A stretch of DNA of 64,000 nt from Lysobacterales bacterium (GCA_022844165.1 JALHMH010000008.1:32001-96000); one strand, 5' to 3'; shown: positions 1 through 21,605, counted from the stretch's first letter. Notes: a model not told the origin generated them from the letters alone. Program-made: numbers and translations.

Positions 1-2823
1 CCTGGCGTTTATGGCACGCCGCTCGCTGGTCGCTGGACTTTCTCATTCAATGATGTGCTGACCTTCCAGCCTAATGCGTTGTTGGCGGTCAATGCCACCT
101 ACGAGGTGCGGTTGTCGGGCATCACGGACGCTGCCGGCAATGCGATGCTGCCCTACGCGTTTACCTTTTCCACGGGCGGTTCGGTCGGCGGCAATCGGCC
201 GCCCACGGTCACCGGTTTCACGGCGTTGCCATATCCGGCCGCGCCGGGCCAGAACGTCGATTTCGTCGCCACCGGCAGCGATCCTGACGGCGATCTGTTG
301 GAGTATCGATTCGACTTCGGCGACGGTACGCCTCGCACCGCCTGGGGCGCCGCAGCCGCTCAACGCGCTTATGCCAACCCCGGACACTATCGGGCCAGCG
401 TGCAGGTTCGCGACCCGTCTGGCGTGATCGCCACGCGCACTCGCGTGGTGACGGTACTCTCCGCGTTACCGGTCACTCGGCCCACAGCCAGTTCACCCAT
501 CGCGTGCGATGGCACCGGGCGTCGCGTGTGGACAATCAATCCCGATAGCGACACGATCAGCGTGCTCGACGCCGATTCACTGGCGAAGGTCGGCGAGTAC
601 CCGACGTGCAACGGTCCACGATCGTTGGCGCGCACTGGCAATGAGGTCTGGGTTGCGTGTCACGACGACGACATCGTGCGCATTCATAATGCCGGCACCG
701 GCGCAACGCTGGCCAGCATCGATACTGGGTACGGCTCTGCGCCCGTCGGTGTCGCGGTCGCGCCGGATGGTGTGAGCGCATTCGTGAGCCTGACGAACCG
801 CGGCGAATTGCGGCGCTTTAGCATCTCAACGCGACTACAAACCGGCGTTCTGGCGCTGGGGCGCACACCACGCGGGGTCGCGGTATCTGCCGACGGAACA
901 CGCGTACTTGTGTCGCGTTTCTTGTCGCCGCTGCACCATGGCGAGATTTGGGACATCAACGCGTCGACGATGCAGTTGACACGCACGATCCGCATTCCCA
1001 AATTTGGTGGCGACGCCAATCGGGACACCACTGCAAGCGGTCGCGGTGTCGCCAACTATTTGGCGAACGTGGCAATTTCTCCGCGCAGTGGTCGCGCATT
1101 CGTGCCGGCGAACAAACCCAACAATGAGCGCGGCTTGTTGATTCATCCGAGCCAGGATCTGGATCAGGACAACAGCGTCAGAAATCTGCTGATCGAGATC
1201 GATCCCGCAGGTGCCACGCCGCAAGATCGTTTCCGCCGTGGTATCGACATCGACAACAGTGATTCGGCCAGCAGCGTCGCGTTTTCGCCGCTAGGCGATT
1301 ACCTGCTGGTGACATTGCAGGGAATGAATGAACTGCTCGTGCTCGACGCCCTCGCGCTCGACGCCAATGCCGGACTCGGTGCGCTGGTCACGCGCATCGC
1401 TGTTGGCGCCGCGCCGCAGGGCGTCTGCAGCGACGCAGCGACGGGACGCACCTTCGTACACAACTTTATGGGGCGCAGCGTCAGTGCGCTGGAGACGGCT
1501 GCGCTTTACAGCAGCGGCGATATCCAGGTTGCCTCGACGAATATCGCGATGGTGGCCAACGAAACGTTGGCGCCGAATGTGTTGCAAGGCAAGCGCCTTT
1601 TTTATCACGCGGGCGATCCGCGGATGAGCGCCGAGGGCTATATCTCTTGTGCAACGTGTCATATCGATGGGAGCGAGGACGGTCGCGTATGGGATTTCAC
1701 CGGTCGCGGCGAAGGCCTGCGCAATACGACCACACTGAACGGCCGCGGCGGCACGGCGCATGGACGCGTGCATTGGAGCGCTAATTTCGATGAGATTCAG
1801 GACTTCGAGAACGACATCCGCGGGCCCTTCGGTGGCGCGGGTTTCTTGACAACGCAGCAATTCGCAGCAACCAGCAATCCGCTCGGTGCATCCAAAGCGG
1901 GCTTGAGCGCGGATCTCGACGCGTTGGCTGCCTATGTGGCATCGCTCGATCAAAGCCACATTCCGCGCAGTCCGTTCCGCCAAGCCAGCGGTGCCAACAC
2001 CGCCGGCGCCGTGCAAGGCGAGGCCATTTTTGCGCGGGAGAATTGCGCCAGTTGCCATGCGCCGCCGCGATATACCAATAGTTTATTGGCATCGTCCAGC
2101 TTAAGCGATGTTGGCACGCTGCGTGCCAGTTCCGGTAGTCGCCTTGGCGGAGCGCTCACCGGCATCGACGTGCCGACCCTGCGCGGTGTATTTGCCAGCG
2201 CGCCCTATTTGCACGATGGCAGCGCCGCGACGTTGGACGATGTTTTTCGCTTCAGCGGAGGTGTGACTTTGCCGGCCGAAAATGCGCTGCGCACCGGCGG
2301 CGCTGCGTTGATCAACAATTTTGTCGACCTCAATAACGACGATACGGTGCGGGGCCGTGCGTATGTGCAGCTTGAAAGCAGCGGCCAGCGGCTGACCTTC
2401 AACAATGTCGATGGCGGTGCTGGTGGGGCAGGAGCATTGGAGTTGCGCTACAGCAATTCGCGCAGCGGCGGGCAGACGCAGGCGCTGACGGTTCGGGTCA
2501 ACGGCGTGGCGCTGCCATCGGTCAATCTTCCCGCGACGGATAACGATCCGACGTGGCGAACGACCAACTGGAACAGCCTTCGCGTTGAGAACGTGGTGCT
2601 TAACGTCGGTACAAGCAACAGCATTGAGATCGAAACCAACGGTTGGTATCTGGCGGTCGACGAAGTGCTGATCGCAAACGCCAATCGGCTGCTCCTGGCG
2701 CAAGCACACCGTCGCGTGCTCGGTCTGCCCACGGGCGAACGCGACGCTCTCATGGCGTTCCTTCGCGAACTGGACAGCACGCCGGGCGTCGTCGACGGCG
2801 TGTTCCAAAATGGCTTCGAGTGA
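1..2823 (+). CDS. 5'-truncated large multidomain protein: Ig-like domain, PKD domain, YVTN-type beta-propeller, di-haem cytochrome c (peroxidase-like) with an inserted CBM6/CBM35-like module, C-terminal DGVFQNGFE motif
   Basis: Frame is open from base 1 (PGVYGTPLAGRWTFS...). PKD signature YRFDFGDG..YANPGHY, repeated P.GVAVS.DG propeller blades, two CxxCH motifs (CATCH 1648-1662, CASCH 2044-2058), PTLRGV..SAPYLHDGS motif, and AE..GRAYV..LRYSN..VNG..VDEV carbohydrate-binding-module pattern. Confidence 0.8.
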   Translation, partial: PGVYGTPLAGRWTFSFNDVLTFQPNALLAVNATYEVRLSGITDAAGNAMLPYAFTFSTGGSVGGNRPPTVTGFTALPYPAAPGQNVDFVATGSDPDGDLLEYRFDFGDGTPRTAWGAAAAQRAYANPGHYRASVQVRDPSGVIATRTRVVTVLSALPVTRPTASSPIACDGTGRRVWTINPDSDTISVLDADSLAKVGEYPTCNGPRSLARTGNEVWVACHDDDIVRIHNAGTGATLASIDTGYGSAPVGVAVAPDGVSAFVSLTNRGELRRFSISTRLQTGVLALGRTPRGVAVSADGTRVLVSRFLSPLHHGEIWDINASTMQLTRTIRIPKFGGDANRDTTASGRGVANYLANVAISPRSGRAFVPANKPNNERGLLIHPSQDLDQDNSVRNLLIEIDPAGATPQDRFRRGIDIDNSDSASSVAFSPLGDYLLVTLQGMNELLVLDALALDANAGLGALVTRIAVGAAPQGVCSDAATGRTFVHNFMGRSVSALETAALYSSGDIQVASTNIAMVANETLAPNVLQGKRLFYHAGDPRMSAEGYISCATCHIDGSEDGRVWDFTGRGEGLRNTTTLNGRGGTAHGRVHWSANFDEIQDFENDIRGPFGGAGFLTTQQFAATSNPLGASKAGLSADLDALAAYVASLDQSHIPRSPFRQASGANTAGAVQGEAIFARENCASCHAPPRYTNSLLASSSLSDVGTLRASSGSRLGGALTGIDVPTLRGVFASAPYLHDGSAATLDDVFRFSGGVTLPAENALRTGGAALINNFVDLNNDDTVRGRAYVQLESSGQRLTFNNVDGGAGGAGALELRYSNSRSGGQTQALTVRVNGVALPSVNLPATDNDPTWRTTNWNSLRVENVVLNVGTSNSIEIETNGWYLAVDEVLIANANRLLLAQAHRRVLGLPTGERDALMAFLRELDSTPGVVDGVFQNGFE

Positions 2824-2969
2824 CGCCGTCTGGCGCATAGCGCAAGGCAACGCCATCGTGGTTCAGTTTCTCCTGGTCGGACGTTCGAGAATCTGGCCGC
2901 CGACACTTTTCCTTTAGTTCGCGTCCTGTCGAACATACGTCTCATTGGCGTAGGTTCCGAGAGCAACCA

Positions 2970-3000
2970 AATTGCCGCGCACTGCTGCAACGCAGCAATT
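2970..3000. promoter_or_regulatory. nested inverted repeat (TGCTGC-AAC-GCAGCA core; PhaR-like CTGC-N3-GCAG) upstream of the lipase operon
   Basis: Perfect 6-bp arms at 2983-2988 and 2992-2997. Outer arms AATTGCCGCG (2970-2979) and CGCAGCAATT (2991-3000) pair with one mismatch. TTGACA lies at 3040-3045. Confidence 0.35.
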
Positions 3001-3104
3001 TTGCGTTACGCTCTTTCGTTAGTTTTGTGTTGCGTTCGGTTGACAGCACTACTAGCATCAATCCGATCTTGCCTTATCCCGAACCCCCAACAAGGAACCC
3101 GCGC

Positions 3105-5306
3105 ATGCACCTTCAGCGGCTTGTCCCATTGGCGATTGCTGGTCTTCTGCTTGGCGCTTGTAGCGGCAGCAGCAATAGCCCGCGCGCCACCCCCGTCCAG
3201 GGCGCCACGAATAGCAACGGCCAGTTCGTCAGCGGTATCCATACGGCCCGTTTTGATCCATCGACCGGCGTCATCCCGTTTCCGAACAATCTTTTGCTTC
3301 AAGGTTCGCGGGATCTCACGATCAATGCGCCGGCAGCGAATCCGAACAACTTTGGCGACCCAACCGTCGCTCTGAACGCACTCGACGGATTTTCGACCAC
3401 CTCGCCGTGGTCGATGACCTTTACCGCCGCGATAGCGCCGACGACGCTGACGCCCGGTAACACGGTGCGCCTCTTTGAGGTTGCGGTGGTGACATCCGGT
3501 CCTGGCGCTGGCGCAGTGCAGCGAGTGGTGCGTGAGTTGGCATCGCCTGCCGAGTATGTGGTTGCGATTTCGACCACTGATGCCACCAATCGAACGATGG
3601 CGATCGTTCCGACGCGGCCACTGGAAGAATTAAAGTCGTATATGGCCGTCGTCACCAACGGCGTCACCGACACCGCCGGTAACAATGCGACGCCCGATTC
3701 AGCTTACTTCCTGGCGAAGAGAACTTCCCCATTGTCGCAGGGAACCGGCACGGCATGCGTGTCGCTCGATCCGCTGTTGCCGGCATCCACCGCATGTGGG
3801 TTAGAGCCGCTCCGTCAGCTGACCAACTCATTCGAAGCAGCAGCTGCTGCGGCTGGCGTCAATCGCGCCAATATCGTGTTGTCCTGGGTTGCCAATACGC
3901 AGGGTGTGACACCCACACTGCGCCTCGTCCGCAGCAACGCGCGCCCGGCAACAACCCGGTTCGCCCGCACCGGGCTGACGACCGCAGCGGCCGGCCTGCC
4001 GCCGATCGCTGACATTTTCATCGGCACGATCGGGTTGCCCTACTACCTGACAGCGCCCGGTACGGGAACCCCTGCTGCGCCAGCGTCTGCGGTGCTGACG
4101 GGTTTTTGGCGCGCGGCGCCGGGCGCTTATGTGCCGCCGTTTAACGCCTTGGGACTGGACTCGACATCCACCAACCTGACGGTGGCTAACCCGATTCCGG
4201 TGGCGACCTCAACACAGACCGCGCCCGTCCTGGTGACCATCCCAAATGCCGCCAGCGGCCAGACGCGGCCAGCTGCGGGATGGCCAGTGGTTATCTTTCA
4301 GCACGGTATCACGCGTAACCGATGCGACATGTTGGCGATCTCAGCAACCTTCGCTCAAGCCGGTTGGGCTGTCGTCGCCATCGATCAGCCGCTCCACGGT
4401 GCTTCGCCGACCGCAACCACAGACCAGTGCCAACCGTTCTACATCGGCCGAACACCATTTGCCCAAGCCGGCGCTCGCGAGCGCACGTTCGACGTCGATT
4501 TAATCAACAATGCGACGGGTGCGCCGGGTCCCGATGGGCAAGTCGATCCCACTGGAGCGCATTCGATCAACCTGTCCAGCCTTCTCACCTCGCGTGACAA
4601 CGTACGCCAGGCGGCGGCGGATCTGGGCGTACTGGCCGTCAGCATTCCGACGATGGATGTGGATGGCAACACCGCAGCGGATTTCGACGGCTCACGGATC
4701 GCTTTCGTCGGGCAATCGTTGGGTTCGATTGTTGGCACAACATTTCTCGCATTGGAGCCCACGGTGAACGTGGCCGTTCTAAGCGTGCCAGGTGGTGGTA
4801 TCGCCAATCTCCTCAATGGATCGCCCACATTCGGCCCGCGAATTCGCGCTGGCATTTCGGCGGCCTCAGGTATTCCGACAAACGATCCGCGCTTTCCAGG
4901 AACATTGGGCCAGTTCCTGCTGATTACGCAGACGGTCATCGACTCGGGCGATCCGATCAATTACGCGCGACTTGCTTCGACCAAGCGCATCTTGCTTCAA
5001 GAGGTCGTTGGCGGTGGAACAGTGTTGCCGGATCAGGTGGTGCCAAATACGGTCGCTGGTGCGCCGCTGTCGGGTACGGAACCCCTGATTGCCGCGTTGG
5101 GCCTGAGCACCATCACCCAGAACACCACGAACGCGAACGGCATTCGTGGCGTGACGCGCTTCATCGTTGGCGATCATGGCTCACTGTTGTCGCCGACGGC
5201 ATCGCTCGCGGCCACCGTCGAGATGCAAGGTCAGATGGCGTCGATGGTTGCATCGGGCGGAGCCCAAGTGAACGTCGCGAATCGCGCCGTGATTCGTACG
5301 CAGTAA
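3105..5306 (+). CDS. Pla-1/cef (VolA-like) family lipoprotein lipase/phospholipase
   Basis: ATG 3105 after AAGGAA; lipobox LLGA-C; N-terminal PFPNNL..ALNALDGFST Ig-like region; oxyanion QHGIT; nucleophile elbow GQSLG; PDQVVPN (Asp) and GDHGSLL (His). Confidence 0.85.
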   Translation: MHLQRLVPLAIAGLLLGACSGSSNSPRATPVQGATNSNGQFVSGIHTARFDPSTGVIPFPNNLLLQGSRDLTINAPAANPNNFGDPTVALNALDGFSTTSPWSMTFTAAIAPTTLTPGNTVRLFEVAVVTSGPGAGAVQRVVRELASPAEYVVAISTTDATNRTMAIVPTRPLEELKSYMAVVTNGVTDTAGNNATPDSAYFLAKRTSPLSQGTGTACVSLDPLLPASTACGLEPLRQLTNSFEAAAAAAGVNRANIVLSWVANTQGVTPTLRLVRSNARPATTRFARTGLTTAAAGLPPIADIFIGTIGLPYYLTAPGTGTPAAPASAVLTGFWRAAPGAYVPPFNALGLDSTSTNLTVANPIPVATSTQTAPVLVTIPNAASGQTRPAAGWPVVIFQHGITRNRCDMLAISATFAQAGWAVVAIDQPLHGASPTATTDQCQPFYIGRTPFAQAGARERTFDVDLINNATGAPGPDGQVDPTGAHSINLSSLLTSRDNVRQAAADLGVLAVSIPTMDVDGNTAADFDGSRIAFVGQSLGSIVGTTFLALEPTVNVAVLSVPGGGIANLLNGSPTFGPRIRAGISAASGIPTNDPRFPGTLGQFLLITQTVIDSGDPINYARLASTKRILLQEVVGGGTVLPDQVVPNTVAGAPLSGTEPLIAALGLSTITQNTTNANGIRGVTRFIVGDHGSLLSPTASLAATVEMQGQMASMVASGGAQVNVANRAVIRTQ

Positions 5307-5338
5307 TCGAGAAGCGATCGGACACCATGGAGAAAACG

Positions 5339-7237
5339 ATGAAAAACACCATACCCGTGCGCTCGCGTCTTGCGCTCGCTGTGCTTGGCGCGTTGGTCGC
5401 CTCGCCTACCTTCGCGTGGGAGTACAGCAACGGCGACTTTGCGTTAACCACGTCTAACACCTTCAGCTATGGCGTGCAGTCGCGTGTCGAAGATCCGGAC
5501 AATGCCTTGATCGGGAAGGCCAACTTGTTTGTGCCCACGCCGCCTTCGGCGGCGTTGCCAACGGGCATTCCATTTCCTGCCGCCTTGCCGAACGCGCAGC
5601 AACGCCTGTTGCCCGGTCGTTTTTCGGTCAATAGCGATGATGGCAACCGCAAATGGGACAACGGCGATGTGTTCAGTAACGCCGTCAAGTGGAACGGTGA
5701 GCTCAGCTGGACGTATGGAGAAAACTGGGGCGGATTTGCCCGTGCCCTGGCCTTCTACGATTACGAAAATCAGCGCCGCGACGATATCAGCGATCTGGCC
5801 AAAGAAGCAGTAGGCAAGGACGCGCAGCTGCTCGACTTCTTCGTTTACAACAATTTTGCCTGGGGCCAGACCAATGGTTCGGTCCGTCTTGGACGGCAAG
5901 TGATCAGTTGGGGCGAGAGCACGTTCATCCAGCAGGGCATCAACGTCATCAATCCGATCGATGTTTCGAAACTGCGCGTTGCAGGTTCGGAATTGAAAGA
6001 GGCGTTCCTGCCGATCGATCAGATTTGGGCAAGCTTGAGCTTCAACGAGAACTTCTCGATCGAAGCCTTGTATATGTTCGAGTTTGAACAAACTGAGCCG
6101 GAGCCATCTGGAACATACTTCAGTTCGAACGACTTCGCGGCGCTGGGTGGCGAATACGTCATGTTGAACTTCGGTCTGGTGCCGGAGCCGATCAACTTTG
6201 GATTTTGCCCGGCGATCGGCGCCGGCCAAAACCCGGGTGGCTTCGATCCGTTCACGTTGGCGATTCAGCGATCCGCATGCGCTGCTGCAGTGCCACGTGC
6301 GCCGGATCGTTTTGCATCCGAGAGCGGTCAATACGGGCTGGCCGCACGTTACTTCGCGCCAGAAATCAACAACACCGAATTTGGCTTCTACTATCTCAAC
6401 TACCACAGCCGGTTGCCGCTGCTGTCGGGTATCTCGGTGACGAACTCCAATGCAAACTCCGCAAGATACTTCGCGGAGTATCCGGAGGACATCGAACTTT
6501 ATGGCTTTAGCTTCAATACCACATTGGAAGGATCTGGCATCGCGTGGCAAGGCGAGCTGAGCTTCCGACCCAACGCGCCGCTGCAGATAGACGATGTGGA
6601 ACTGCTGTTCACGGCGTTGAGTCCGCTCAACGCGGTCATTCCGCAGCCCGTAAATCGCTTTGTCAGCCAACTGGGATCGGTAGGACCGGGCCAGTACGTC
6701 AGAGGTTGGGAGCGCCACGAAATCAGCCAGTTCCAGACGACGCTGACAAAAGTCTTCGGGCCGGAGAACCCGGTAGGCGCCGATCAGATTTCGGCCGTGC
6801 TTGAGGTCGGCGCAACCAAGGTTTGGGACTTGCCGGATCCTTCGGTGCTCCGCTATCAAGGTGACGGTACTGACACCGGCGGCGGCCCGGACTTCCTGAC
6901 GGGTGCGTTCCGCAACCCGCAGACCTTGAACAACGGCTTTCCGACCTCGTTTTCGTGGGGCTACCGATTGGCAGGCCGCGCCGATTACAGTAACGCCTTC
7001 GGGTCGCCATTTACGCTGTCCCCGCGTATCGCATTTAACCATGACGTCAACGGTATCACCCCAGGCCCCGGCGGCAACTTCCTGGAAGATCGCCGTTCGC
7101 TGACTTTGGGTGTGGAAGCCAACTACCTGAATGAGTGGAGCGTCGATTTGAGCTACACGCGATTCTCAGGCGCGGGCATCTTTAATTTGCTCAACGATCG
7201 CGACTTTGTGGCCTTCACGGCGCGCTACGCGTTCTGA
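5339..7237 (+). CDS. DUF1302 family outer-membrane beta-barrel protein
   Basis: Signal peptide; SVNSDDGN, RLGRQVISWGESTFI, NPIDVSKLR..GSELKE and NYHSRLP motifs; C-terminal DRDFVAFTARYAF ends in a beta-signal Phe; GGAG RBS before ATG 5339. Confidence 0.9.
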   Translation: MKNTIPVRSRLALAVLGALVASPTFAWEYSNGDFALTTSNTFSYGVQSRVEDPDNALIGKANLFVPTPPSAALPTGIPFPAALPNAQQRLLPGRFSVNSDDGNRKWDNGDVFSNAVKWNGELSWTYGENWGGFARALAFYDYENQRRDDISDLAKEAVGKDAQLLDFFVYNNFAWGQTNGSVRLGRQVISWGESTFIQQGINVINPIDVSKLRVAGSELKEAFLPIDQIWASLSFNENFSIEALYMFEFEQTEPEPSGTYFSSNDFAALGGEYVMLNFGLVPEPINFGFCPAIGAGQNPGGFDPFTLAIQRSACAAAVPRAPDRFASESGQYGLAARYFAPEINNTEFGFYYLNYHSRLPLLSGISVTNSNANSARYFAEYPEDIELYGFSFNTTLEGSGIAWQGELSFRPNAPLQIDDVELLFTALSPLNAVIPQPVNRFVSQLGSVGPGQYVRGWERHEISQFQTTLTKVFGPENPVGADQISAVLEVGATKVWDLPDPSVLRYQGDGTDTGGGPDFLTGAFRNPQTLNNGFPTSFSWGYRLAGRADYSNAFGSPFTLSPRIAFNHDVNGITPGPGGNFLEDRRSLTLGVEANYLNEWSVDLSYTRFSGAGIFNLLNDRDFVAFTARYAF

Positions 7238-7263
7238 CATGGATTGAGGCAGAGGAGAGTAAG

Positions 7264-8619
7264 ATGAGGATGAGAACCAAACTGCTCGGCGCTCTGCTGA
7301 GCCTCGGACTGGCCAGCGGCGCCCATGCCGCAGTGCCAGCAGCGCAGGCTGACCGGCTGGGCAAAGATCTGACGCCGGTCGGCGGCGAGAAAGGCGCCAA
7401 CAAAGACAACACTATTCCAGCCTGGGATGGTGGCATCACCCGGCCACCCGCCAACTTCAAGCTTGGCGATTTTCACCCGGATCCGTTTCCCGGTGACAAA
7501 CCGCAATTGCAGTTGACGCAGGCCAACTACAAGGACCATGCAGCCAAGTTGTCCGTCGGCCAACAGGCGATGTTTGCGAAGTATCCGACGTTCCGGATGG
7601 ATATCTATCCTACCCGGCGTTCGGCTTCGTTTCCGCAACGCATCTACGACATGACCAAGCGCAATGCCACGACTGCCAAGATGATTGGCGAAGGTGCGGG
7701 CGTGGAAAATGCAGCCGAAGGCTTCCCGTTCCCGATTCCCTCCGACGGCTACCAGGTCATTTGGAACCATAAGCTCAAGTACAAGGGCGTCTCGGTTCGA
7801 CGCTGGGCAAATCAAGCGGCGCCAACGGCAACCGGTGCATTCACGCCCATTCGCATTCGCGAAGAGCTGCTTGGATTGTATTGGAAGGAAGGCAATACCA
7901 TCGCCGACATCAATAACGTTCTGACCTACTTCTATCAAGAAGTGCTGGCGCCCGCCCGCCTGGCAGGTAACGTTTTGTTGGTGCATGAGACATTGAACCA
8001 GGAAGCGCAGCAACGTCAGGCGTGGGTGTACAACCCGGGTCAGCGCCGCGTGCGCAAAGCGCCGAATGTGGCTTACGATAATCCAGGCACTGCATCGGAT
8101 GCGCTTCGAACGAACGATATGACCGATATGTTCAATGGCGCGTTAGATCGCTTCGAGTGGAAGCTGGTGGGCAAGCGCGAGATGCTGATTCCGTACAATA
8201 CGTACAAGGCTCACGCCAAAGGGCTGGACTACAAGACGCTGATCCGTCCTGGGCATCTGAATCCAGATGTCATGCGCTATGAACTGCATCGCGTCTGGGT
8301 GGTTGAAGCCACGCTCCGCAGTGGTTTCCGCCACATCAACAGTCGCCGCACTTTCTTCCTTGACGAAGACAGCTGGCAGATCGCCATGATCGACCACTAT
8401 GACAGTCAGGGTCAGCTTTGGCGCTACAGCGAAGCGGCGATCGTCAATTACTACGAACAGCCGGTGCTTTGGACCACACTCGAAACGCACCACGATCTGA
8501 AATCAGGACGTTACATCGTGTCCGGTATCGACAACCAAGAAGAATCCTACAACTTCTCGTTTGTGACGTCGCCGGAGAATTATTCCCCGCAGGCGCTGAG
8601 AAGCCGCGGCGTCCGTTGA
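7264..8619 (+). CDS. DUF1329 family periplasmic protein (predicted LolA-like carrier)
   Basis: Signal peptide; LTPVGGEKGAN..IPAWDGG, RQAWVYNPGQRRVRKAP, RYELHRVWVVEAT and FLDEDSWQ motifs. Confidence 0.92.
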   Translation: MRMRTKLLGALLSLGLASGAHAAVPAAQADRLGKDLTPVGGEKGANKDNTIPAWDGGITRPPANFKLGDFHPDPFPGDKPQLQLTQANYKDHAAKLSVGQQAMFAKYPTFRMDIYPTRRSASFPQRIYDMTKRNATTAKMIGEGAGVENAAEGFPFPIPSDGYQVIWNHKLKYKGVSVRRWANQAAPTATGAFTPIRIREELLGLYWKEGNTIADINNVLTYFYQEVLAPARLAGNVLLVHETLNQEAQQRQAWVYNPGQRRVRKAPNVAYDNPGTASDALRTNDMTDMFNGALDRFEWKLVGKREMLIPYNTYKAHAKGLDYKTLIRPGHLNPDVMRYELHRVWVVEATLRSGFRHINSRRTFFLDEDSWQIAMIDHYDSQGQLWRYSEAAIVNYYEQPVLWTTLETHHDLKSGRYIVSGIDNQEESYNFSFVTSPENYSPQALRSRGVR

Positions 8620-8638
8620 GCGTTCGAAAGTGGTATCA

Positions 8639-8673
8639 GAACGCCGGCCCGGTGGTGAACTTGGCCGGCGTTC
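8639..8673 (+). terminator. intra-operon stem-loop (partial terminator or mRNA stabiliser)
   Basis: Perfect 11-bp stem GAACGCCGGCC / GGCCGGCGTTC with a 13-nt loop; only a weak U tail (GCATTTG). Confidence 0.55.
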
Positions 8674-8712
8674 GCATTTGTGGGTTGGGTTCAATTCTGG
8701 CTGGGGAACGGC

Positions 8713-9789
8713 ATGAGAATTTCGAAACGCGCGCTCGGGTTGCTGGGATTTGTTTGGCTCGGTGGGCTGTCGGCGCAAGATAAGACTTCGCCGCCGGCGT
8801 CGGTTTGGGCCGATCCGGCCACGGCGCCAGCGGAGACGCTCGATCTGGCGCGTATCCAGCGATCATTATTGGTCGATGTGGCGGAAGCACGGGATCGCGC
8901 CGTCATTGTCGGTGACCGAGGGCATATCCTGGTGTCCGAATCACGCAGCGAATGGCGTCAGGTCCCTGTGCCGACACGCGTGCTGCTCACAGCGGTGACG
9001 GCAGTCGACAATCGGCTTTGGGCCGTGGGTCACGATCAGGTGATTGTCTACAGTAGCGATGGTGGCTTAACGTGGACCTTGCAGAATTCGGATATCGCGG
9101 CTGAAGGTCCACTTTTAGATGTGGTGTTTCTCGATGGCGAACGTGGCTTTGCGATTGGCGCCTACGGCCAGTTCCTGAGTACTTCGAACTCTGGCGCCAG
9201 TTGGGAAGTGCAAACGATCAGCGATCGTGTTGCCGGCGTCGATCCTTCCTCCGTGCCGGTTGACGAGCCCGACGACGAGGCATTAGATGATGGGTCGATG
9301 CTTGCCAGCACCGACGTTGGTGAAGACGAAGGTGACCCACACTTAAATGCCATCGCCCGCACCAACGCCGGTTTACTGATCGTTGGCGAAGCCGGCTCCG
9401 TGTACCGGTCAATCGATGATGGCGCGACTTGGGAGCGCTCGGATCTCCCCTATGACGGTTCGATGTTCACCCTGGTTCCACTCGACAACGGTCGAATTGT
9501 CGCCGCTGGGCTTCGTGGCAACGTTTTTGTGACCGGTGATCTAGGTCGAAGCTGGCTATCGATAAGCTCGGGTACGGAAGCCAGCATATTCGGCGGTGCG
9601 GCTGTCGGAGGTAGTCGCGCACTGCTGGTAGGTGCGAGCGGCACCCTCCTCTTGGCGTCTGCAGATACGCTTGAACTAAGGCTTTCGACGTTCGCCGATG
9701 GCGGCATCATGAGTGCGGCGCTACCGATCAGCGAATCGGAGTTCGTGCTTGTTGGAGAGAACGGCGTGGCCACGCATTCCATTCATTAA
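8713..9789 (+). CDS. YCF48-related / BNR-repeat beta-propeller periplasmic protein
   Basis: Signal peptide; repeated VG..G.I..S.DGG.TW Asp-box blades; WAVGHDQVI; canonical position between DUF1329 and RND genes. Confidence 0.88.
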   Translation: MRISKRALGLLGFVWLGGLSAQDKTSPPASVWADPATAPAETLDLARIQRSLLVDVAEARDRAVIVGDRGHILVSESRSEWRQVPVPTRVLLTAVTAVDNRLWAVGHDQVIVYSSDGGLTWTLQNSDIAAEGPLLDVVFLDGERGFAIGAYGQFLSTSNSGASWEVQTISDRVAGVDPSSVPVDEPDDEALDDGSMLASTDVGEDEGDPHLNAIARTNAGLLIVGEAGSVYRSIDDGATWERSDLPYDGSMFTLVPLDNGRIVAAGLRGNVFVTGDLGRSWLSISSGTEASIFGGAAVGGSRALLVGASGTLLLASADTLELRLSTFADGGIMSAALPISESEFVLVGENGVATHSIH

Positions 9790-9804
9790 ACGGGAGAGCA
9801 CGTC

Positions 9805-12315
9805 ATGGCAGGAATGGGTTCGAACGACGTCAGCTACCCGCGACTGGAGAAGCTGATCTTTGGTAACCGCGGAATCGTACTCGGTATCTTCATTCTGATT
9901 ACGCTCGGTTTCCTAATGGCGGCGATGCAACTTCGCATCGATGCCGGGTTCCGCAAGCAGTTACCGCTGAATCATGAGTACATGCAGACCTTCGTCGACT
10001 ACGAGACGGAGTTTGGCGGCGCAAATCGCGTTTTCGTTGCGCTGATCGACAAACGCGGTGATATGTTCAACAAAGAGTTTTTCACGGCTTTGGAGAAGGC
10101 GACGGAGCAGGTTAAGGCGATCAGCGAAGTGGACAATTCGCGAGTGCGATCGATCTTTACGCCAAATACGCGCTTTGTCGAAATCGTAGAAGGTGGATTC
10201 GCGGGCGGAAACGTTATCCCGGCAGATTTCTCGACGACCGCGCCAGATTTCAATCCGACCGCTGACGATTTCGATGCAATCCGAACCAATATCGTAAAAG
10301 CGGGAATTGTCGGGCGCCTTGTTGCGAAAGACTTCTCTGGCGCGATGGTTCAAGCAGAGTTGATTCCTGAGACGGCTGCAGAAGGTGGCAAACTCGACTA
10401 CCAAGGGGTCGGCGATAAACTCGAGCAGATTCGTGCTGCCATCGAAAACAATAATATCAGTGTGCATATTATCGGGTTTACGAAGGTGGTTGACGACATC
10501 GCCGATGGTGCCAGGTCGGTCATTTACTTCTTTCTGCTCACAGTCGTCTTTACTTTCATTCTGCTCTACGTCTACTCGACTTCGTTCAAGCTCGCGATGT
10601 TGACGGTCGTGGCGGCTTTCGTGGCAGTCATCTGGATGCTTGGTGCTTTGCGTTTGATGGGTTTTGGTATTGACCCGATGAACATGCTGACACCATTCCT
10701 GATATTCGCCATCGCAGTCAGTCACGGCGAGCAGATGATCAATCGCTATCGCGGCGAGGTGTTTTTCGGTGGGCTCGAAGAGGGTACACCTGAGGAGTTG
10801 GAGAAGCGTCAAGGAGTGTCAAGCGAGGAGGCAGCGAAGAGTGCATTCCGACGCTTGTTGATTCCCGGTTGCGTCGCCTTGCTCGCCGGGTGCATTGGCT
10901 TCGGGACGATTCTACTGATCCCAGTGAAGATGATCTTTGAGTTGGCTGTGACAGCCACGGTTGGCGTCTTTTTGACGATATTTACCAACTTGATCCTGCT
11001 GCCCATTCTGTTGTCTTACACCAAGCTGTCGAACCTGCCTAAGAAGCGTGCGTTCCGCTTGCGGCAGATCACAGCATTCGATCACATTTGGGCGTTTTTG
11101 ACACGTTTCTCCCGCCCCGCAGTGGCCGCGGGCATCATTGTGATGGGTTTGGTGGTGTGGTTCTTCGCGCACAAACATGCCGAGCAAATGATGGTCGGCG
11201 ATGCACGGGATGGTGTTGCCGAATTGCGCGACGACGCGCGGTACAACCAGGACGCGCGCGAGATTACGCAGCGATTTTCGCTGTCGACCGACATCATCAA
11301 CATCATTGCCGAAGTGGGTCCTTTCGCATGTACCGAGAGTTTCCGGGCGATGGAGACGCTCGACCGTTTCGCATGGCATATGCAGAATGTTGAGGGCGTG
11401 CAGCAAGTTATCACCCTCTCGCACGTCGGGCGAATGGTCACGGCCGGCTATAACGAAGGCAGTCCGCGCTGGCGCGCTTTGCCTAGAAACGCTGAGGTCA
11501 TGCGCCAGAGTTTGCAAAGCGTCGAGACAGATTCGGGATTGATCGATGCGCCAGAATGCAGAGCGATGCCGGTTATTGTCTTTACCACCGATCACAAAGC
11601 AGAGACGATCACGCGTGTGGTCAATGCGGTGAAATCGTTCCGTGAGAAGAACCAGGCTTTCGACATGAGTTTTCGTGTCGAGCGCGACAAGGCGGAAGTC
11701 GCGGCGATGGAAACCGGCGAGGAGTATCGAACCGATCAGGTCAACCTGCGTCTGGCGACCGGCAGCGTAGGCGTTGCCGCAGCAATCAATGAGACGGTCA
11801 GCGAACTCGAAAAACCGATGCTCTATTTGTTGTATGTAGCCGTGTTCTTGATGTGCATTCTGAGTTTCAAGAACCCGCTTGCAGCTTTGTGCATTGTTTT
11901 GCCGCTCATTCTGGTGACAGCGCTCGGTGAGGCCTTAATGGTCGAGCTTGGTATAGGCCTCAAAGTCAATACCCTCACGGTCGTCGCCCTGGGGGTCGGC
12001 ATCGGTGTCGATTATGCGATTTACATTTTTGCGCGAATGCGCGAGCTGATGCTTCAGGGTAAGGGGCTGAGTCAAGCTTACTTTGAAGCACTGAAAACGA
12101 CCGGAATTGCCATCTTCTACACCGCGCTGACGCTGGCTTGCGGTGTGGCAACATGGATATTCTCGGAGCTCAAATTCCAGGCGGACATGGGCTTGATGCT
12201 GACCTTCATGTTTGTAGTCAATATGATCGCCGCCATCGTCTTCCTGCCAGCATTGTGCCGCTGGTTATTGAAGCCTTTCGAGAAAGTGGAGTGGACCCCG
12301 CCCAAATCTGCTTAG
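9805..12315 (+). CDS. RND superfamily (MMPL/HpnN-like) inner-membrane transporter
   Basis: Two repeats of TM + large periplasmic loop + 5 TM; FGGANRV, AIAVSHG, GVGIGVDYAIY and FQADMGLMLTFMF motifs. Confidence 0.92.
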   Translation: MAGMGSNDVSYPRLEKLIFGNRGIVLGIFILITLGFLMAAMQLRIDAGFRKQLPLNHEYMQTFVDYETEFGGANRVFVALIDKRGDMFNKEFFTALEKATEQVKAISEVDNSRVRSIFTPNTRFVEIVEGGFAGGNVIPADFSTTAPDFNPTADDFDAIRTNIVKAGIVGRLVAKDFSGAMVQAELIPETAAEGGKLDYQGVGDKLEQIRAAIENNNISVHIIGFTKVVDDIADGARSVIYFFLLTVVFTFILLYVYSTSFKLAMLTVVAAFVAVIWMLGALRLMGFGIDPMNMLTPFLIFAIAVSHGEQMINRYRGEVFFGGLEEGTPEELEKRQGVSSEEAAKSAFRRLLIPGCVALLAGCIGFGTILLIPVKMIFELAVTATVGVFLTIFTNLILLPILLSYTKLSNLPKKRAFRLRQITAFDHIWAFLTRFSRPAVAAGIIVMGLVVWFFAHKHAEQMMVGDARDGVAELRDDARYNQDAREITQRFSLSTDIINIIAEVGPFACTESFRAMETLDRFAWHMQNVEGVQQVITLSHVGRMVTAGYNEGSPRWRALPRNAEVMRQSLQSVETDSGLIDAPECRAMPVIVFTTDHKAETITRVVNAVKSFREKNQAFDMSFRVERDKAEVAAMETGEEYRTDQVNLRLATGSVGVAAAINETVSELEKPMLYLLYVAVFLMCILSFKNPLAALCIVLPLILVTALGEALMVELGIGLKVNTLTVVALGVGIGVDYAIYIFARMRELMLQGKGLSQAYFEALKTTGIAIFYTALTLACGVATWIFSELKFQADMGLMLTFMFVVNMIAAIVFLPALCRWLLKPFEKVEWTPPKSA

Positions 12316-12350
12316 CGATTGGCTTCGCCGAAGCCCCGATTGATGAGGCT

Positions 12351-12381
12351 CAACGAGGCGGCGCTCAGCGCCGCTTCGTTG
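12351..12381 (+). terminator. strong hairpin closing the lipase-DUF1302-RND operon
   Basis: CAACGAGGCGGCGC...GCGCCGCTTCGTTG stem (one G-U pair), 35 nt after the RND stop codon. Confidence 0.6.
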
Positions 12382-12729
12382 TTGGGCAACAAAGAAGGCG
12401 AAGATCGCCATTGTTGCGTGGCGACCGGAGCTGCGTCGCAAGATGCGTGCGCTCAGAATCCGCGGCACCACGAATGAATGGCAAGTGGCAAGGTCGGTGC
12501 GCCGTCGTCGGCCGCATTCTCCAAACAGCGATGTCTCCGTGGTGTGGCGTCGATCGGACTGCATTGAACTTCGATCCGAGGACCAGGTTCGACTGCTGAA
12601 GGCGCCTTTTGGCTGCGGACGATGATCCACTCGGTATCATTCGATGTTGGATCGCTCGCCCGAGAGGAGACGGATCCCGTGAAACGATCTATCCGGCCCC
12701 GTGACGCTCCGGTCCAATCACGCGATTGC

Positions 12730-15654
12730 ATGACCAGGCAATTTGCTTGCGCTGCTTTTTTCTTTCTTGCCCACTCGATCTCTGGTGATGCTTCCGAGCG
12801 GCGGACTTTGCCAGCACCGTTGGCGCGAATTCCGATGGAGCTGGATTGGACGGCATACAAGGTATTCGACAGCAATTCCGGCCTGCCGCAGAACACGGTG
12901 CTGGCCATTGGCCAAGACGACTTCGGCTTCATCTTTGTTGGCACCGAGCGTGGATTGGCCCGATACGATGGGCGGGCGTTTGAGGCGGTGCCTTTGGGCG
13001 AAAGCTCAGAGCCGGTTCGCGCCATTTCGAATGCAGATCATGCGCTCTGGGTGGGTACCGATTCTGGTATCTGGCGTCTGGCTGAAGATATGGCGCGGCC
13101 TGTTCATATCGCGGTTCCTGGGGTGAATCGATTCCTCCCCAGCACCGATCTGATGTGGGTTGCAACGACCGTAGGGCTTTGGCGTTGCGCCTACGCCGAT
13201 GTCCGCAGCGATCGCCGTTGTGAACGGATCGAAGCGACAAGAGAACTGGGCATTCGAAGTCTGTTGGCCGACGGGGTCGATGCGCTGTGGCTGGGAACCA
13301 ACGGACAAGGACTTCGACGTCTCGTGGATCTTCGTGGTGTACCGAGGCTCGATGACTTCCATTTCGACCGCGACGATGGTGTGCCCAACAATATCGTCAT
13401 CTCCCTGGGGACGTGGCGAGGTGATTTGTGGATTGGCGCGGGGCGTGGTTTTGCGCGGTTACGCGATGATCGTCTTCGCGTCTGGTCTGCGGCCAGCGGT
13501 CTGGCGCCCGCAATGGCTTTTGATTTCGACGCGGGCGAAGATGGCATGTCTGTTGCGATGCGACCTGGCGGCATCGTACGCGTCGATGCAGCGGACAACT
13601 GGTATTCACAGCGGGGCGCGAATGGTCTGCCCGACGACAATGTGCAGGTGTTGTTTCGCGAGCGACACACGCGGAACTTGTGGATCGGCACTTACGGCGG
13701 CGGAATTGCCCGCGAAGAACGCGGGCGATTCGCTGTTCTTGACCAGCGCCGGGGTTTGCCCGATCGCGCGGTAGTTGGGCTCGGTTTGATCGAAGATCAG
13801 CTGTGGGTTGGCACGCCACGTGGCGCGGTCGTTTGGCAAGATGGCGCTTTTGTGCCGCTACTGCCAGATGCCTATGCCGATCTCCACGTCCGTGCGGCGT
13901 TGCGGACGGAAGGCGGCGAGCGCCTCATCGCGACCGACCGCGGTCTGCTGCTGCAACGCAGCGACGGTGAGGTGGTGGAGTACACCGTCGACAATTCTGA
14001 GTTGCCGGCCGTTGCGGCCAACGATCTTGCGCGAACAGGCGGAATCGTATGGGTCGCAACCAGTCATGGACTCGCGCGCTGGACCGCGACAGAGGGTCTG
14101 CGCGGAATGCGCGACGCCGACGGTTTGCCAGACGGTGCGGCCATTCAAGCGATGGCCAGCGATAGCGTCGAACGCCTGGTTGTTGCGACAGACAAAGGTG
14201 TCTGGCGATGGCAGGACGGGAGATTCGAGCCTGCCCGCGATGCTTGCGTTGGTCGGTTGGCGATCAACGATCTGAGCATCGACAGAGAGCGAATCTTGAT
14301 TGCGGCGCGCGAACGCCTTGTGGCATGGACGCCTGGCCGTGGGTGCAGCGATGTACCGAACTCGCCGAAGGGCGATGGCTGGACCCATATTCGCCATAAG
14401 CCAGGCGGTTTTGCAGCCAGCAATGCCCAAGGTCTTTGGCTGGTCGATGAGCGCGGTGCGCGGCTCTTTGGACTGGATGATGGCATGCCTTCGCGCGAGC
14501 TGGCTCGGGGCAACACGCTCGCCATCGACGCTTCGGCCCGCGTTTTCGTCGGCACGCATCTGGGCGTCGGCGCCTTGCGTGATGTGCAGATCGAACCGAA
14601 CCGACCGGCGCCATTGCGTCTTTGGGCCAGTCTTGCCGATGGTACGCCGATAGCTTCCGGTACAACGCTCTCTCGGTCTGAGGCCAGCGTGCATTTTCGC
14701 TACCGGCTGCTCAACTTCGATCGCGAACATCTGCATCGATACGCCAGGCAACTGTCCAGCATCGATTCGAGCATCGTGCGCGACGCGAGTGCTGCTGAAA
14801 GCGATTATGTCCGACTGCCAGCAGGTTCCTATCAATTTCGGGTGTGGGGCGCCGACGCCGATGGAACCGAATCTGGCCCGCTGACGTTTAGCTTCACGGT
14901 CGCAGCGCCATGGTGGCAACGCTGGCCCACCTTGGTCGCAGGTGCTGCGCTCCTGTTAGCCGGTGGTGTGCTGGTTGGGCGTCTCAGGACGCGAGCTTTG
15001 CAGCGCCGTGCAATCGAATTGCAGGAGCAAGTCCAACTGCGAACGTCCGAACTTGCCGAAGCGAATCAACGCCTCGCACAGGCGGCGCTGGCGGATCCGC
15101 TCACCGGTTTGCGCAATCGCAGATACTTGACCCAAATCCAGTCCGACGAAGAAGAGCGGGCCACGCGCCGGACACGCGCTGGCGATCGTCATGCAGACCT
15201 GGTGGTGGTTCTGCTGGACCTGGATCATTTCAAACACATCAACGACCAGTACGGGCACCCGGCAGGCGATGCGGTGCTTGTGGCCACCGCGCAGCGTCTG
15301 ACGGGTGTGGCACGCGCGGGTGACGCGGTGCTGCGTTGGGGCGGCGAGGAGTTTTTGTTGCTCATGCGCGATAGCGATCGCGGCGCGCTCGTAGAGATTG
15401 CCGGTCGTGTGCTCGCCGCGGTCCATGGCGATGTTGAGTTCGGTGGCCGTCGCATCGCAGTCACCGCCAGCGCAGGCGTTGTGGCCTTTCCGGTGTATCG
15501 TCGGCCGGATGCTGGTTTGAACGAAGCCATTGTGATTGCCGACGGCGCTCTGTACGCGGCCAAACGCAACGGCCGGGATGGTGCCGTTGCGATACACAAT
15601 GACGAACAGATTTGGATCAAACGCCCATGGATCGACAGCAGTTCATCGAGTTAG
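12730..15654 (+). CDS. ligand-binding beta-propeller (Reg_prop/Y_Y_Y) sensor diguanylate cyclase
   Basis: Repeated GLP.N.V..LW.GT..GL blades, LPAGSYQFRV (Y_Y_Y), TM helix after PWWQRW, DPLTGLRNRR, LDLDHFKHINDQYGH..GD and RWGGEEF. Start uncertain (12622-12730). Confidence 0.9.
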   Translation: MTRQFACAAFFFLAHSISGDASERRTLPAPLARIPMELDWTAYKVFDSNSGLPQNTVLAIGQDDFGFIFVGTERGLARYDGRAFEAVPLGESSEPVRAISNADHALWVGTDSGIWRLAEDMARPVHIAVPGVNRFLPSTDLMWVATTVGLWRCAYADVRSDRRCERIEATRELGIRSLLADGVDALWLGTNGQGLRRLVDLRGVPRLDDFHFDRDDGVPNNIVISLGTWRGDLWIGAGRGFARLRDDRLRVWSAASGLAPAMAFDFDAGEDGMSVAMRPGGIVRVDAADNWYSQRGANGLPDDNVQVLFRERHTRNLWIGTYGGGIAREERGRFAVLDQRRGLPDRAVVGLGLIEDQLWVGTPRGAVVWQDGAFVPLLPDAYADLHVRAALRTEGGERLIATDRGLLLQRSDGEVVEYTVDNSELPAVAANDLARTGGIVWVATSHGLARWTATEGLRGMRDADGLPDGAAIQAMASDSVERLVVATDKGVWRWQDGRFEPARDACVGRLAINDLSIDRERILIAARERLVAWTPGRGCSDVPNSPKGDGWTHIRHKPGGFAASNAQGLWLVDERGARLFGLDDGMPSRELARGNTLAIDASARVFVGTHLGVGALRDVQIEPNRPAPLRLWASLADGTPIASGTTLSRSEASVHFRYRLLNFDREHLHRYARQLSSIDSSIVRDASAAESDYVRLPAGSYQFRVWGADADGTESGPLTFSFTVAAPWWQRWPTLVAGAALLLAGGVLVGRLRTRALQRRAIELQEQVQLRTSELAEANQRLAQAALADPLTGLRNRRYLTQIQSDEEERATRRTRAGDRHADLVVVLLDLDHFKHINDQYGHPAGDAVLVATAQRLTGVARAGDAVLRWGGEEFLLLMRDSDRGALVEIAGRVLAAVHGDVEFGGRRIAVTASAGVVAFPVYRRPDAGLNEAIVIADGALYAAKRNGRDGAVAIHNDEQIWIKRPWIDSSSSS

Positions 15655-21426: not shown

Positions 21427-21497
21427 GCGGCAGCGGCCCGGCGAGTGACTGGCGATTCTATCGCTCCTGGTCAGTGGACAGCGGCGGAACGTCCAGC

Positions 21498-21553
21498 CCG
21501 TCATTTTCTCGCAACCTGTTGCGCATCGGAGCGTCACACAGCCCGCCTAGCGT
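21498..21553 (+). promoter_or_regulatory. putative Pho box array and -10 element upstream of phoX
   Basis: Cores GTCAT (21500), GCAAC (21511), CGCAT (21522) and GTCAC (21533) at an exact 11-bp period; TAGCGT begins 10 nt after the last core, the usual PhoB spacing. Confidence 0.5.
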
Positions 21554-21605
21554 TCGCCGCTTGTGCGGCAGTCAGCCGTCTCGAGCCAACGCCAGAGGAA
21601 ATCAG

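Follow-up and report, generated by a model that had tools for sequence, protein, structure and literature searches.

The window studied here, the whole 64,000-nucleotide stretch of Lysobacterales DNA that was analysed, carries on its plus strand (3105-12315) five closely packed, co-oriented genes followed by a strong hairpin. A lipoprotein lipase of the VolA/Pla-1 family is encoded first, and the remaining four genes, the "quartet", specify a DUF1302 outer-membrane beta-barrel, a periplasmic DUF1329 protein, a Ycf48-like BNR beta-propeller and an RND inner-membrane transporter. The linkage of the lipase to the quartet is conserved, and the same lipase family alternates between FadL and DUF1302 partners, which is the new observation of the present work. 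The most likely job of the operon is to acquire acyl lipids or fatty esters from outside the cell by an inward route, a reading that is advanced tentatively and with somewhat less than even confidence.

Gene calls and family matches bear out the content, order, common orientation and short gaps that the original prediction gave for the five genes. The lipase gene (3105-5306, 733 aa) is followed by those for the DUF1302 barrel (5327-7237; PF06980, 549.6 bits) and the DUF1329 protein (7264-8619; PF07044, 500.5 bits), both of whose products have a Sec signal peptide; the latter is LolA-like, with a sub-threshold match to LolA_like at 29.3 bits. The gene for the periplasmic propeller (8680-9789; PF14870, 61.6 bits, cut-off 27) more likely begins at the ATG at 8713 than at 8680, and the later start yields the signal peptide MRISKRALGLLGFVWLGGLSA. 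The last gene (9805-12315) encodes the MMPL/HAE3-like RND transporter (PF03176 MMPL, 77.2 bits against a cut-off of 20.5). The intergenic gaps are, in gene order, 20, 26, 60 (93 if ATG 8713 is the propeller start) and 15 bp, a spacing that is operon-like, and the barrel, carrier, propeller and RND genes are adjacent in the order of an AmeABCD-type cassette. The five genes probably form a single operon and would then be transcribed together. A profile search of the host genome found one DUF1302 gene. None of seven antisense ORFs matched a Pfam family above the curated cut-off (one weak match, E 0.0005, fell below it), and no Rfam family was found in positions 1-16000 of the window.

The operon is flanked by elements that may control its expression. 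A perfect 6-3-6 palindrome, TGCTGCAACGCAGCA, lies at 2983-2997 (no strand assigned), about 122 nt 5' of the lipase start, and is a candidate operator or 5' hairpin. Of the 21 order members checked, 13 have a copy with at most two substitutions at approximately -117 to -174, and a fourteenth, L057, whose start codon was probably mis-called, has one at -42; some of the copies are variants that are still palindromic (TGTTGC..GCAACA), while none of three class-level loci has the palindrome. A conserved upstream block, GTTAGTTTTGTGTTGCGTTC...TTGACAGCACTACTAGCAT (3018-3058, plus strand), is a possible promoter, with a putative -35 element TTGCGT (3030-3035), a 17-nt spacer and a putative -10 element TAGCAT (3053-3058; TATCAT in relatives). 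Six of the 21 order members have its 20-nt core, with at most four substitutions, between -87 and -90, and the core is kept even when the upstream gene differs (one encoding a GAPDH-like C-terminus as against a dihaem protein); the block is not among the promoters listed by a consensus promoter scan. A hairpin rich in GC follows the stop codon of the RND gene (12348-12387, plus strand) and is the likely transcript end. Its stem, 12 bp long at 12353-12379, extends to 12348-12387, and the 85-nt stretch containing it has a folding energy of -39.5 kcal/mol (z = -2.8), which 1 of 200 shuffles equals, in agreement with the prediction of a strong closing hairpin. A terminator scan did not list the hairpin, the T-poor tail of which fails the T-run rule of that scan.

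The first gene product was predicted to be a lipoprotein lipase with a GQSLG motif, and lipobox, family profiles and active-site motif are all found. The N-terminus, MHLQRLVPLAIAGLLLGAC-SGS, bears a lipobox (LLGAC19-S20) in which Cys19 is followed at +2 by Ser rather than Asp, and a lipobox-like N-terminus ending in Cys is seen in most of 58 homologues, as judged by eye. A flexible tether (approximately residues 17-31) leads to an N-terminal Lipase_bact_N/Ig-like domain (PF12262; residues 84-304 of the longer ORF score 52.6 bits, the cut-off being 22.3) and an alpha/beta-hydrolase domain. The match to the VolA/Pla-1 profile TIGR03502 is a narrow one, its 388.8 bits exceeding the cut-off of 383.9 by about 5 bits; among order relatives 37 of 39 genomes match this profile, and only 20 of the 39 (G000 included) do so above the cut-off. 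GQSLG occupies residues 536-540, with S538 as nucleophile, and H400, S538, G540, D616, D643 and H691 are invariant in all 48 aligned homologues. Two of these invariant residues, D616 and D643, are candidates for the acid of the triad. The AF2 model of the lipase (pLDDT 92, pTM 0.90) gives Foldseek matches to generic alpha/beta-hydrolase esterases only. Sequence identity between the window lipase and L026, the representative of the Vibrio type, is only 31%, and no lipase residue marks the quartet context, 1 conservative position of 733 being different.

The AF2 model of the DUF1302 protein (pLDDT 80, pTM 0.79) has OccAB1, chitoporin and AlgE as its best PDB folds, with TM-scores on the target of 0.5-0.57; FadL is absent among the best 40 or so fold matches listed, and the protein has no match to PF03349 (FadL/TodX). 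Membership of the FadL family is therefore rejected, although the barrel may still work like FadL.

The RND protein falls below the cut-off of the HAE3 profile (TIGR00921, 123.8 bits against 351.9), is 38-49% identical to the RNDs of other quartets and has weak matches to SecDF/SecF; its hydropathy fits a predicted 12 TM segments with two large periplasmic loops. It shares its fold with HpnN, MmpL3 and AcrB-MexB, for which structures have been solved; no partnership with a DUF1302 barrel is known for any of these pumps. A weak similarity (E 1e-7 to 1e-4) links the second TM bundle of the protein to MexB 333-504 and HpnN, and its GVDYA aligns with MexB LVDDA, the Asp-Asp motif of MexB TM4. An asymmetric proton relay had been proposed on the basis of the motifs AIAVSHG in the first repeat (TM4) and GVDYA in the second (TM10). 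The motifs are as described, with a Glu directly after SHG (SHGE), and the placing of the acidic residue in TM10 and of Ser-His in TM4 distinguishes this protein from HpnN, MmpL3 and AcrB-MexB. However, the asymmetry is invariant across quartet RNDs with or without a lipase, and acidic residues on one side only are ordinary among RND pumps, so the feature is uninformative about import or direction.

The association of the lipase with the barrel was surveyed across genomes. In the order (Lysobacterales/Xanthomonadales) the lipase gene lies directly upstream of, and co-oriented with, the DUF1302 gene in 35 of the 36 genomes holding both, the two genes being split across contig ends in the 36th; two complete genomes from one family of the order have neither. 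The full order lipase-DUF1302-DUF1329-BNR-RND is kept in 20 of 20 fetched relatives, as far as their contigs reach, with lipase-DUF1302 gaps of 14-75 bp. Outside the order, 300 genomes of the class were sampled, and the two genes are linked in 10 of the 13 that hold both. These cases span nine other family codes, and the arrangements vary: the lipase may be first or last, an enoyl-CoA hydratase gene may intervene, or barrel and lipase may stand alone. The linkage is thus not peculiar to one genome, and the reading of the five genes as a conserved unit is supported. In the same sample DUF1302 went undetected in 24 of 37 lipase-bearing genomes, and 31 of 44 genomes with DUF1302 lack a lipase of the VolA/Pla-1 family, so each gene can do without its partner. 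Among 20 quartet loci not linked to this lipase, an alpha/beta-hydrolase lipase was upstream of none. Frequent neighbours are beta-oxidation genes (FadE-type acyl-CoA dehydrogenase, ECH, acyl-CoA synthetase and thioesterase).

The alternation of partners emerges from the 37 sampled lipase loci, 11 of which have FadL (279-367 bits) directly upstream and co-oriented, 10 of which have DUF1302, and none of which has both. No FadL homologue was found in the 64-kb window, at the 10 class-level DUF1302-linked loci or in the 20 fetched order relatives. In the lipase tree the quartet-linked sequences are intermingled with the FadL-linked ones, and the starred branches force at least five changes of quartet label; the 21 lipases of the order form one clade. 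The claim that the quartet replaces FadL holds for the locus but not for the genome, since a weak FadL-family gene is present elsewhere in the host. The idea that the module stands in the place FadL has in Vibrio cholerae gains real comparative support from the alternation.

In V. cholerae, VolA is described as a lysophospholipase that is a surface lipoprotein and is transcribed together with fadL; it is exposed at the surface there and in E. coli cells made to express it, and its route to the surface is stated to be unknown (PMC3656444). The fadL (vca0862)-volA (vca0863) pair resembles the window in combining a TIGR03502/PF12262 lipase with an outer-membrane barrel in one operon, and the two lipases share a lipobox, an N-terminal domain and a GxSxG hydrolase. 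In the window, however, the barrel is a DUF1302 protein of porin/Occ/AlgE-like fold encoded downstream of the lipase, whereas fadL precedes volA, and a periplasmic carrier-like protein, a propeller and an RND pump are added.

The only quartet to have been studied directly is AmeABCD of Castellaniella defragrans, which has the same components in the same order (DUF1302, DUF1329, a COG4447 BNR protein and RND). It lies without a lipase in a monoterpene catabolic island, unlike the lipase-led operon of the window, and is read as a tetrapartite HAE3-type RND efflux/tolerance system, export and tolerance being shown indirectly: the mutant accumulated more Nile Red, was less tolerant of monoterpenes, and grew like the wild type on acetate with up to 5 mM limonene and poorly on limonene alone (PMC6394551). 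Quartets also occur within terpene, aromatic and steroid clusters (10.1101/072470; PMC6394551). The same four families are cofit in Shewanella amazonensis (Sama_1588-1591) and in Pseudomonas putida (PP_0765/0766 and PP_2018/2019), where the module is split over two loci, whereas the window has the four genes and a candidate hydrolase in one operon (10.1101/072470; 10.1101/2020.07.04.188060; PMC10866462). In P. putida, mutants in all four genes are specifically defective on Tween 20, DUF1302, DUF1329 and BNR mutants alone are defective on butyl stearate, the quartet is needed on esters and dispensable on free fatty acids, and no hydrolase for these esters is identified (10.1101/2020.07.04.188060). 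A transport system has been proposed from AlphaFold co-folding (PMC10866462). The quartet and its proposed transport role are therefore already in print, while no paper linking the quartet to a lipase was found. The lipase was predicted to name acyl lipids as the substrate class, but published mutant phenotypes on Tween 20 and butyl stearate had already indicated that class.

In the favoured inward route, the presence of the lipase points to fatty esters or lipids as the quartet's cargo. The lipase would cleave an ester at the outer membrane, probably from the cell surface; DUF1302, in the place that FadL has in fadL-volA, would pass the hydrophobic product through the outer membrane; DUF1329 would ferry it across the periplasm; and the propeller-RND pair would deliver it to the inner membrane, driven by the proton gradient. 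The last steps would follow, by analogy only, the logic of eukaryotic NPC2-NPC1, in which a soluble carrier hands sterol to an RND-superfamily protein for insertion into the membrane. Simple uptake of released fatty acid fits uneasily with the dispensability of the P. putida quartet on free fatty acids, and for the same reason the quartet cannot simply be a FadL-like fatty-acid uptake route. An inward route with another order of steps, in which the intact ester or lipid enters through DUF1302 and DUF1329 and the RND-propeller pair then handles the products, accommodates this result and is rather unlikely overall. In the pooled P. putida assays, quartet mutants fail on esters and not on the matching free fatty acids (10.1101/2020.07.04.188060); a public esterase would have rescued them, so hydrolysis seems private and quartet-dependent. 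The window lipase, with Ser at +2, could also reside at the periplasmic face, the default location of Lol-sorted outer-membrane lipoproteins, but VolA, the characterised member of the family, is surface-exposed in both hosts, and the same lipase family pairs with FadL, a free fatty-acid channel.

A serious rival, which we likewise consider improbable on balance, is export or detoxification, in which the quartet clears membrane-damaging lipase products (free fatty acids, lysolipids or fatty alcohols) or exports envelope lipid, and the coupling of lipase and pump would serve self-protection or envelope remodelling rather than feeding. To our knowledge all biochemically characterised bacterial RNDs are exporters, which counts against the inward reading; the tolerance and Nile Red phenotypes of the ameABCD mutant point the same way (PMC6394551), as does the proposal of Price et al., who saw pleiotropic phenotypes for the quartet, that a cell-wall component is exported (10.1101/072470), and the ester-specific defect in P. 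putida fits product toxicity as well as uptake. Against export, the alternative partner of the lipase is an uptake channel, the neighbouring genes are catabolic, and the limonene growth pattern of ameABCD is also explained by an uptake defect (PMC6394551). It is very improbable that the quartet sorts the lipase itself, with the RND extracting the acylated N-terminus, DUF1329 carrying it and DUF1302 exposing it at the surface: the LolA_like and SecDF/SecF matches and the unexplained surface route of VolA would suit this idea, but the lipase is missing at the 20 non-lipase loci and from 31 of 44 DUF1302-bearing genomes, quartets also lie in terpene, aromatic and steroid clusters, FadL-linked lipases manage without a quartet, and VolA reaches the surface of E. 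coli, in which a control search found no DUF1302. Inherited synteny without functional coupling deserves equally little credence; a single inheritance within the order is possible given its one lipase clade, but the linkage recurs in nine other family codes in several gene orders, the one family of the order that lacks the lipase lacks DUF1302 as well, and the gaps are operon-like.

The fuller form of the inward route, in which DUF1302 does the work of FadL and all four quartet proteins together move lipid inwards at the expense of the proton gradient, is possible though doubtful. If true, it would make the quartet the first demonstrated case of import by an RND system in bacteria, and the VolA-type lipase would name acyl esters as the quartet's natural substrate.

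The operon at 3105-12315 (+) is filled by five co-oriented ORFs separated by intergenic gaps of 20, 26, 60 and 15 bp. The first gene (3105-5306, +) encodes a predicted lipoprotein lipase that matches TIGR03502 (VolA/Pla-1) with 388.8 bits against a cut-off of 383.9, and also PF12262 (Lipase_bact_N); its N-terminus, MHLQRLVPLAIAGLLLGAC-SGS, is a lipobox with Ser at +2, and GQSLG occupies residues 536-540. The remaining four genes, here called the quartet, encode a DUF1302 protein (549.6 bits), a DUF1329 protein (500.5 bits) and a Ycf48-like BNR protein (61.6 bits), each with a Sec signal peptide, provided in the last case that the start is the ATG at 8713, followed by an MMPL/HAE3-like RND protein (PF03176, 77.2 bits; TIGR00921, 123.8 bits, below the cut-off) with the usual 12-TM, two-loop hydropathy pattern. 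The genome holds one DUF1302 gene. A 12-bp GC-rich stem at 12353-12379, extendable to 12348-12387, lies 3' of the RND gene; this stretch folds with z = -2.8, and one of 200 shuffles folds equally well, while its tail is T-poor and it is absent from the listing produced by a terminator scan. Gene content, gaps and stem all confirm the original prediction of five co-oriented, closely spaced genes with a hairpin at the end. Inspection of antisense ORFs and Rfam searches of the operon region found nothing; an antisense ORF of 532 aa within the DUF1302 gene (5444-7042, -) has no family match and most likely owes its existence to high G+C content.

The records matched by the lipase belong to the Lysobacterales/Xanthomonadales and are mostly MAGs (Ahniellaceae, Rhodanobacteraceae, Aquimonas, Pseudomarimonas). 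Among 39 genomes of this order, the window's own included, the lipase model is matched in 37 and DUF1302 in 36, and in 35 of the 36 genomes that hold both, the lipase shares its strand with the DUF1302 match and ends 90-160 bp ahead of it; the remaining genome (G037) has them at the ends of different contigs. Both are missing from two complete genomes of one family, and one 72%-complete genome has a lipase fragment only. The order lipase-DUF1302-DUF1329-BNR-RND is kept in all 20 fetched relatives as far as their contigs reach. In a set of 48 loci from public genome contigs, 46 have a lipase of at least 53% identity (locus L107 over the last 44 residues only), which is followed by DUF1302 in 43 cases and by a contig edge in the other three; the two distant matches (Cellvibrionaceae, Glaciecola) are without the quartet. 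Several of the 48 loci come from genomes that are also among those compared, so the two sets of counts are not independent. The operon is real and conserved, and is a new combination of two parts that had already been described. Variants within the quartet were also seen: two tandem DUF1329 genes are present at L052 (8016-11141, genome G031) and L123 (4940-7839, G243), and at L042 (G003) the RND gene is in two pieces 8 nt apart at about 11649-11657 (query residues 1-406 and 409-835), which could reflect a frameshift or a MAG assembly error.

Conservation extends into the region upstream of the lipase. A palindrome, TGCTGCAACGCAGCA, lies at 2983-2997, within 300 nt upstream of the lipase, and 14 of 21 order members have copies with at most two substitutions, 13 of them at about -117 to -174 and one (L057, whose start is probably mis-called) at -42; a 20-nt core, GTTAGTTTTGTGTTGCGTTC, is found in six of the 21 with up to four substitutions. 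Some of the variants of the palindrome (TGCTGCNNNGCAGCA in the window) found in relatives are still palindromic. The palindrome and a promoter-like block (3018-3058) are kept also when a different gene lies upstream, and the pair fits a candidate promoter and operator in front of the lipase gene, possibly the operator of some regulator.

The genes that flank the operon in the window do not share this conservation. The upstream gene (1-2823, +, running off the window start) encodes a large protein that combines PKD and Big_5 domains with beta-propeller repeats; it also contains a MauG/di-haem cytochrome c peroxidase region and a RoxA-like cytochrome c motif, and its end weakly resembles CBM35. 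Directly after the operon, 12622-15654 (+) encodes a diguanylate cyclase (GGDEF) of 1010 aa whose sensor repeats are of the Reg_prop and Y_Y_Y types. Homologues of either above 80 bits were found beside the operon in none of the 20 fetched relatives or 48 contig loci, and both genes were therefore rejected as members of the system. A membrane-protein pair, DUF2157 and DUF4401 (15612-17542, +), overlaps the GGDEF gene at its end. Further away, at 10-20 kb from the operon, are a PhoX alkaline phosphatase (21474-23561, +) and a glycerophosphodiester phosphodiesterase (33708-34625, -); that these could, with a lysophospholipase, complete the use of phospholipid head groups is pure speculation.

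The association reaches beyond the order. An even sample of 300 gammaproteobacterial genomes was scored with a lipase family threshold of E <= 1e-20, all 37 lipase loci were fetched, and linkage was taken as location on the same strand within 5 kb. Beyond the window's genome, 37 sampled genomes have the lipase family, 44 have DUF1302 (45 of 301 when the window's genome is counted) and 13 have both; linkage is found in 10 of these 13, and the neighbourhood survey upholds the association inside the order and elsewhere in the class. The lipase precedes the full quartet directly in four genomes (G085, G109, G305, G323) and with an enoyl-CoA hydratase and other genes between in two (G169, G202); it follows the quartet in G252, follows DUF1302 alone in G192 and, up to the contig end, in G087, and precedes DUF1302 alone in G289. 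The two genes are unlinked in G110, G119 and G222, the last of which has a Vibrio-type VolA (868 bits). The insertions between lipase and DUF1302 at L018 (G169, 11150-11980) and L021 (G202, 11276-12912, where a short-chain dehydrogenase, SDR, is also present) put beta-oxidation genes inside the unit, and the flanks of lipase loci often hold such genes (FadE-type dehydrogenase, enoyl-CoA hydratase, acyl-CoA synthetase, thioesterase).

The 27 class-level lipase loci without DUF1302 linkage were examined for FadL. A co-oriented FadL-family gene (PF03349, 279-367 bits) stands directly upstream of the lipase at 11 of them, neither barrel occurs within two ORFs on either side at another 11, and five could not be judged owing to contig ends or truncated lipases. 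A tblastn search with seven of these FadL proteins gave matches at exactly the same 11 loci; the 10 class-level DUF1302-linked loci, the 20 relatives within the order and the window gave no match. Both barrel types lie near each other at only one of the loci seen, L117 (G276), a non-lipase quartet with a FadL-like fragment (165-551) directly behind the RND gene at the contig edge. In a lipase tree of 55 sequences (three truncated rows dropped; quick search, LG+G4) the 21 lipases of the order form one clade (SH-aLRT 100), outside which lipases linked to the quartet, to FadL or to neither are intermixed; six changes of the quartet label are needed, and the starred branches force at least five of them. 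On the evidence of this tree, the same lipase lineage has repeatedly switched between the two outer-membrane barrels as its partner. Within the genus coded g125, the lipase is FadL-linked in G141 (L015) and quartet-linked in G323 (L038), and the two are not sisters on the tree. DUF1302 itself was rejected as a FadL homologue, as it has no PF03349 match; the best matches of its AF2 barrel (pLDDT 80) are OccAB1, chitoporin and AlgE, a likeness that agrees with PMC13499233.

The lipase looks catalytically competent from its conserved residues, because H400, S538, G540, D616, D643 and H691 are invariant across a 48-member family alignment. Its AF2 model is confident (pLDDT 92, pTM 0.90) outside the signal peptide (pLDDT about 52-54) and the disordered tether that follows it (residues 17-31), and its fold matches in the PDB are generic alpha/beta-hydrolase esterases; sequence searches of the PDB with the lipase and with DUF1329 found nothing at E <= 0.01. 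An interface signature in the lipase was sought and rejected, since the comparison of 13 quartet-linked with 21 other lipases yielded one conservative context-specific position among 733. Co-folding of the DUF1302 protein (residues 31-636) with the part of the lipase (20-360) that precedes its hydrolase domain (361-733) scored 0.00 and is neutral on interaction.

Quartets also occur apart from the lipase. Among 20 non-lipase DUF1302 loci, 18 have all four families and two (L116, L119) only the DUF1302-DUF1329 pair; the upstream genes vary (GatAB, PAS kinases, Ser/Thr kinases, LuxR, AraC), none of the 20 has an alpha/beta-hydrolase lipase, and acyl-related genes are present at four (L111, L119, L124 with enoyl-CoA hydratase and SDR, and L125 with acyl-CoA synthetase). 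At two of these a penicillin-amidase-type (Ntn) acylase, another class of acyl-cleaving enzyme beside the barrel, adjoins DUF1329-DUF1302, co-oriented and leading at L119 (G088, 131-5965) and divergent at L111 (G056, 10191-13097). The RND proteins of the two kinds of locus share their motifs: S-H-[G/A] in the first repeat (TM4) is found in all 25 lipase-linked RNDs whose sequence spans it and G-V-D-Y in the second (TM10) in 26 of 26, and a pattern search recovered each motif in 17 of 18 non-lipase quartets. The Glu after SHG in the window's RND varies in relatives (E or V). A PDB search aligns the second TM bundle of the window's RND with MexB 333-504, placing GVDYA over LVDDA, the TM4 Asp-Asp motif, whose residues are those of the AcrB/MexB proton relay. 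A one-sided acidic relay is normal for RND pumps, and in the window's RND the halves are swapped. The suggestion that the asymmetric relay hints at import was consequently dropped: motifs that are near-invariant with or without a lipase are neutral on direction.

That the lipase and the quartet are functionally coupled is very probable, and the rival idea that their adjacency is mere synteny is highly unlikely. The direction of transport and the order of steps are less well supported. The favoured reading, held tentatively, is an inward acyl-lipid route in which the lipase would hydrolyse its substrate at the outer membrane. VolA is described as a lysophospholipase and surface lipoprotein that shares a transcript with fadL and is needed for growth on lysophosphatidylcholine (PMC3656444). 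The same inward route might instead carry the intact ester across first, a variant that is somewhat unlikely but is favoured by the ester-specific phenotype of P. putida: according to 10.1101/2020.07.04.188060, growth on Tween 20 specifically needs PP_0765/0766/2018/2019 and growth on butyl stearate needs PP_0765/0766/2018, all four are dispensable on laurate and myristate, and no hydrolase is known there.

An outward direction, with the quartet exporting or detoxifying the products of the lipase, is somewhat unlikely; outward readings of the quartet are in print. AmeABCD, the quartet of Castellaniella defragrans, is read as a monoterpene exporter in PMC6394551, where the mutant is reported to grow normally on acetate with up to 5 mM limonene and poorly on limonene alone, and 10.1101/072470 reports cofitness of the quartet in Shewanella, Kangiella and Pseudomonas and proposes export of a cell-wall component. 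From co-folding, PMC10866462 derives a "novel hypothesized substrate transport system", and PMC13499233 records conservation of the quartet in 629 of 635 P. aeruginosa strains. A role of the quartet in lipoprotein sorting is very improbable. Searches of the literature for DUF1302 or DUF1329 with lipase returned only papers that were unrelated by title and opening of the abstract, and no printed statement of the lipase-quartet linkage or the FadL alternation was found in the passages and abstracts covered.

The quartet is widespread. The presence of the lipase in the operon, together with the alternative pairing of its family with the fatty-acid channel FadL, gives the quartet a concrete substrate class, and makes its cargo testable genetically as esters versus free fatty acids. 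For the esterase left without a name in the P. putida work, the operon's lipase is also a candidate. If transport by the quartet is inward, the textbook picture of bacterial RND transporters as exporters only would change.
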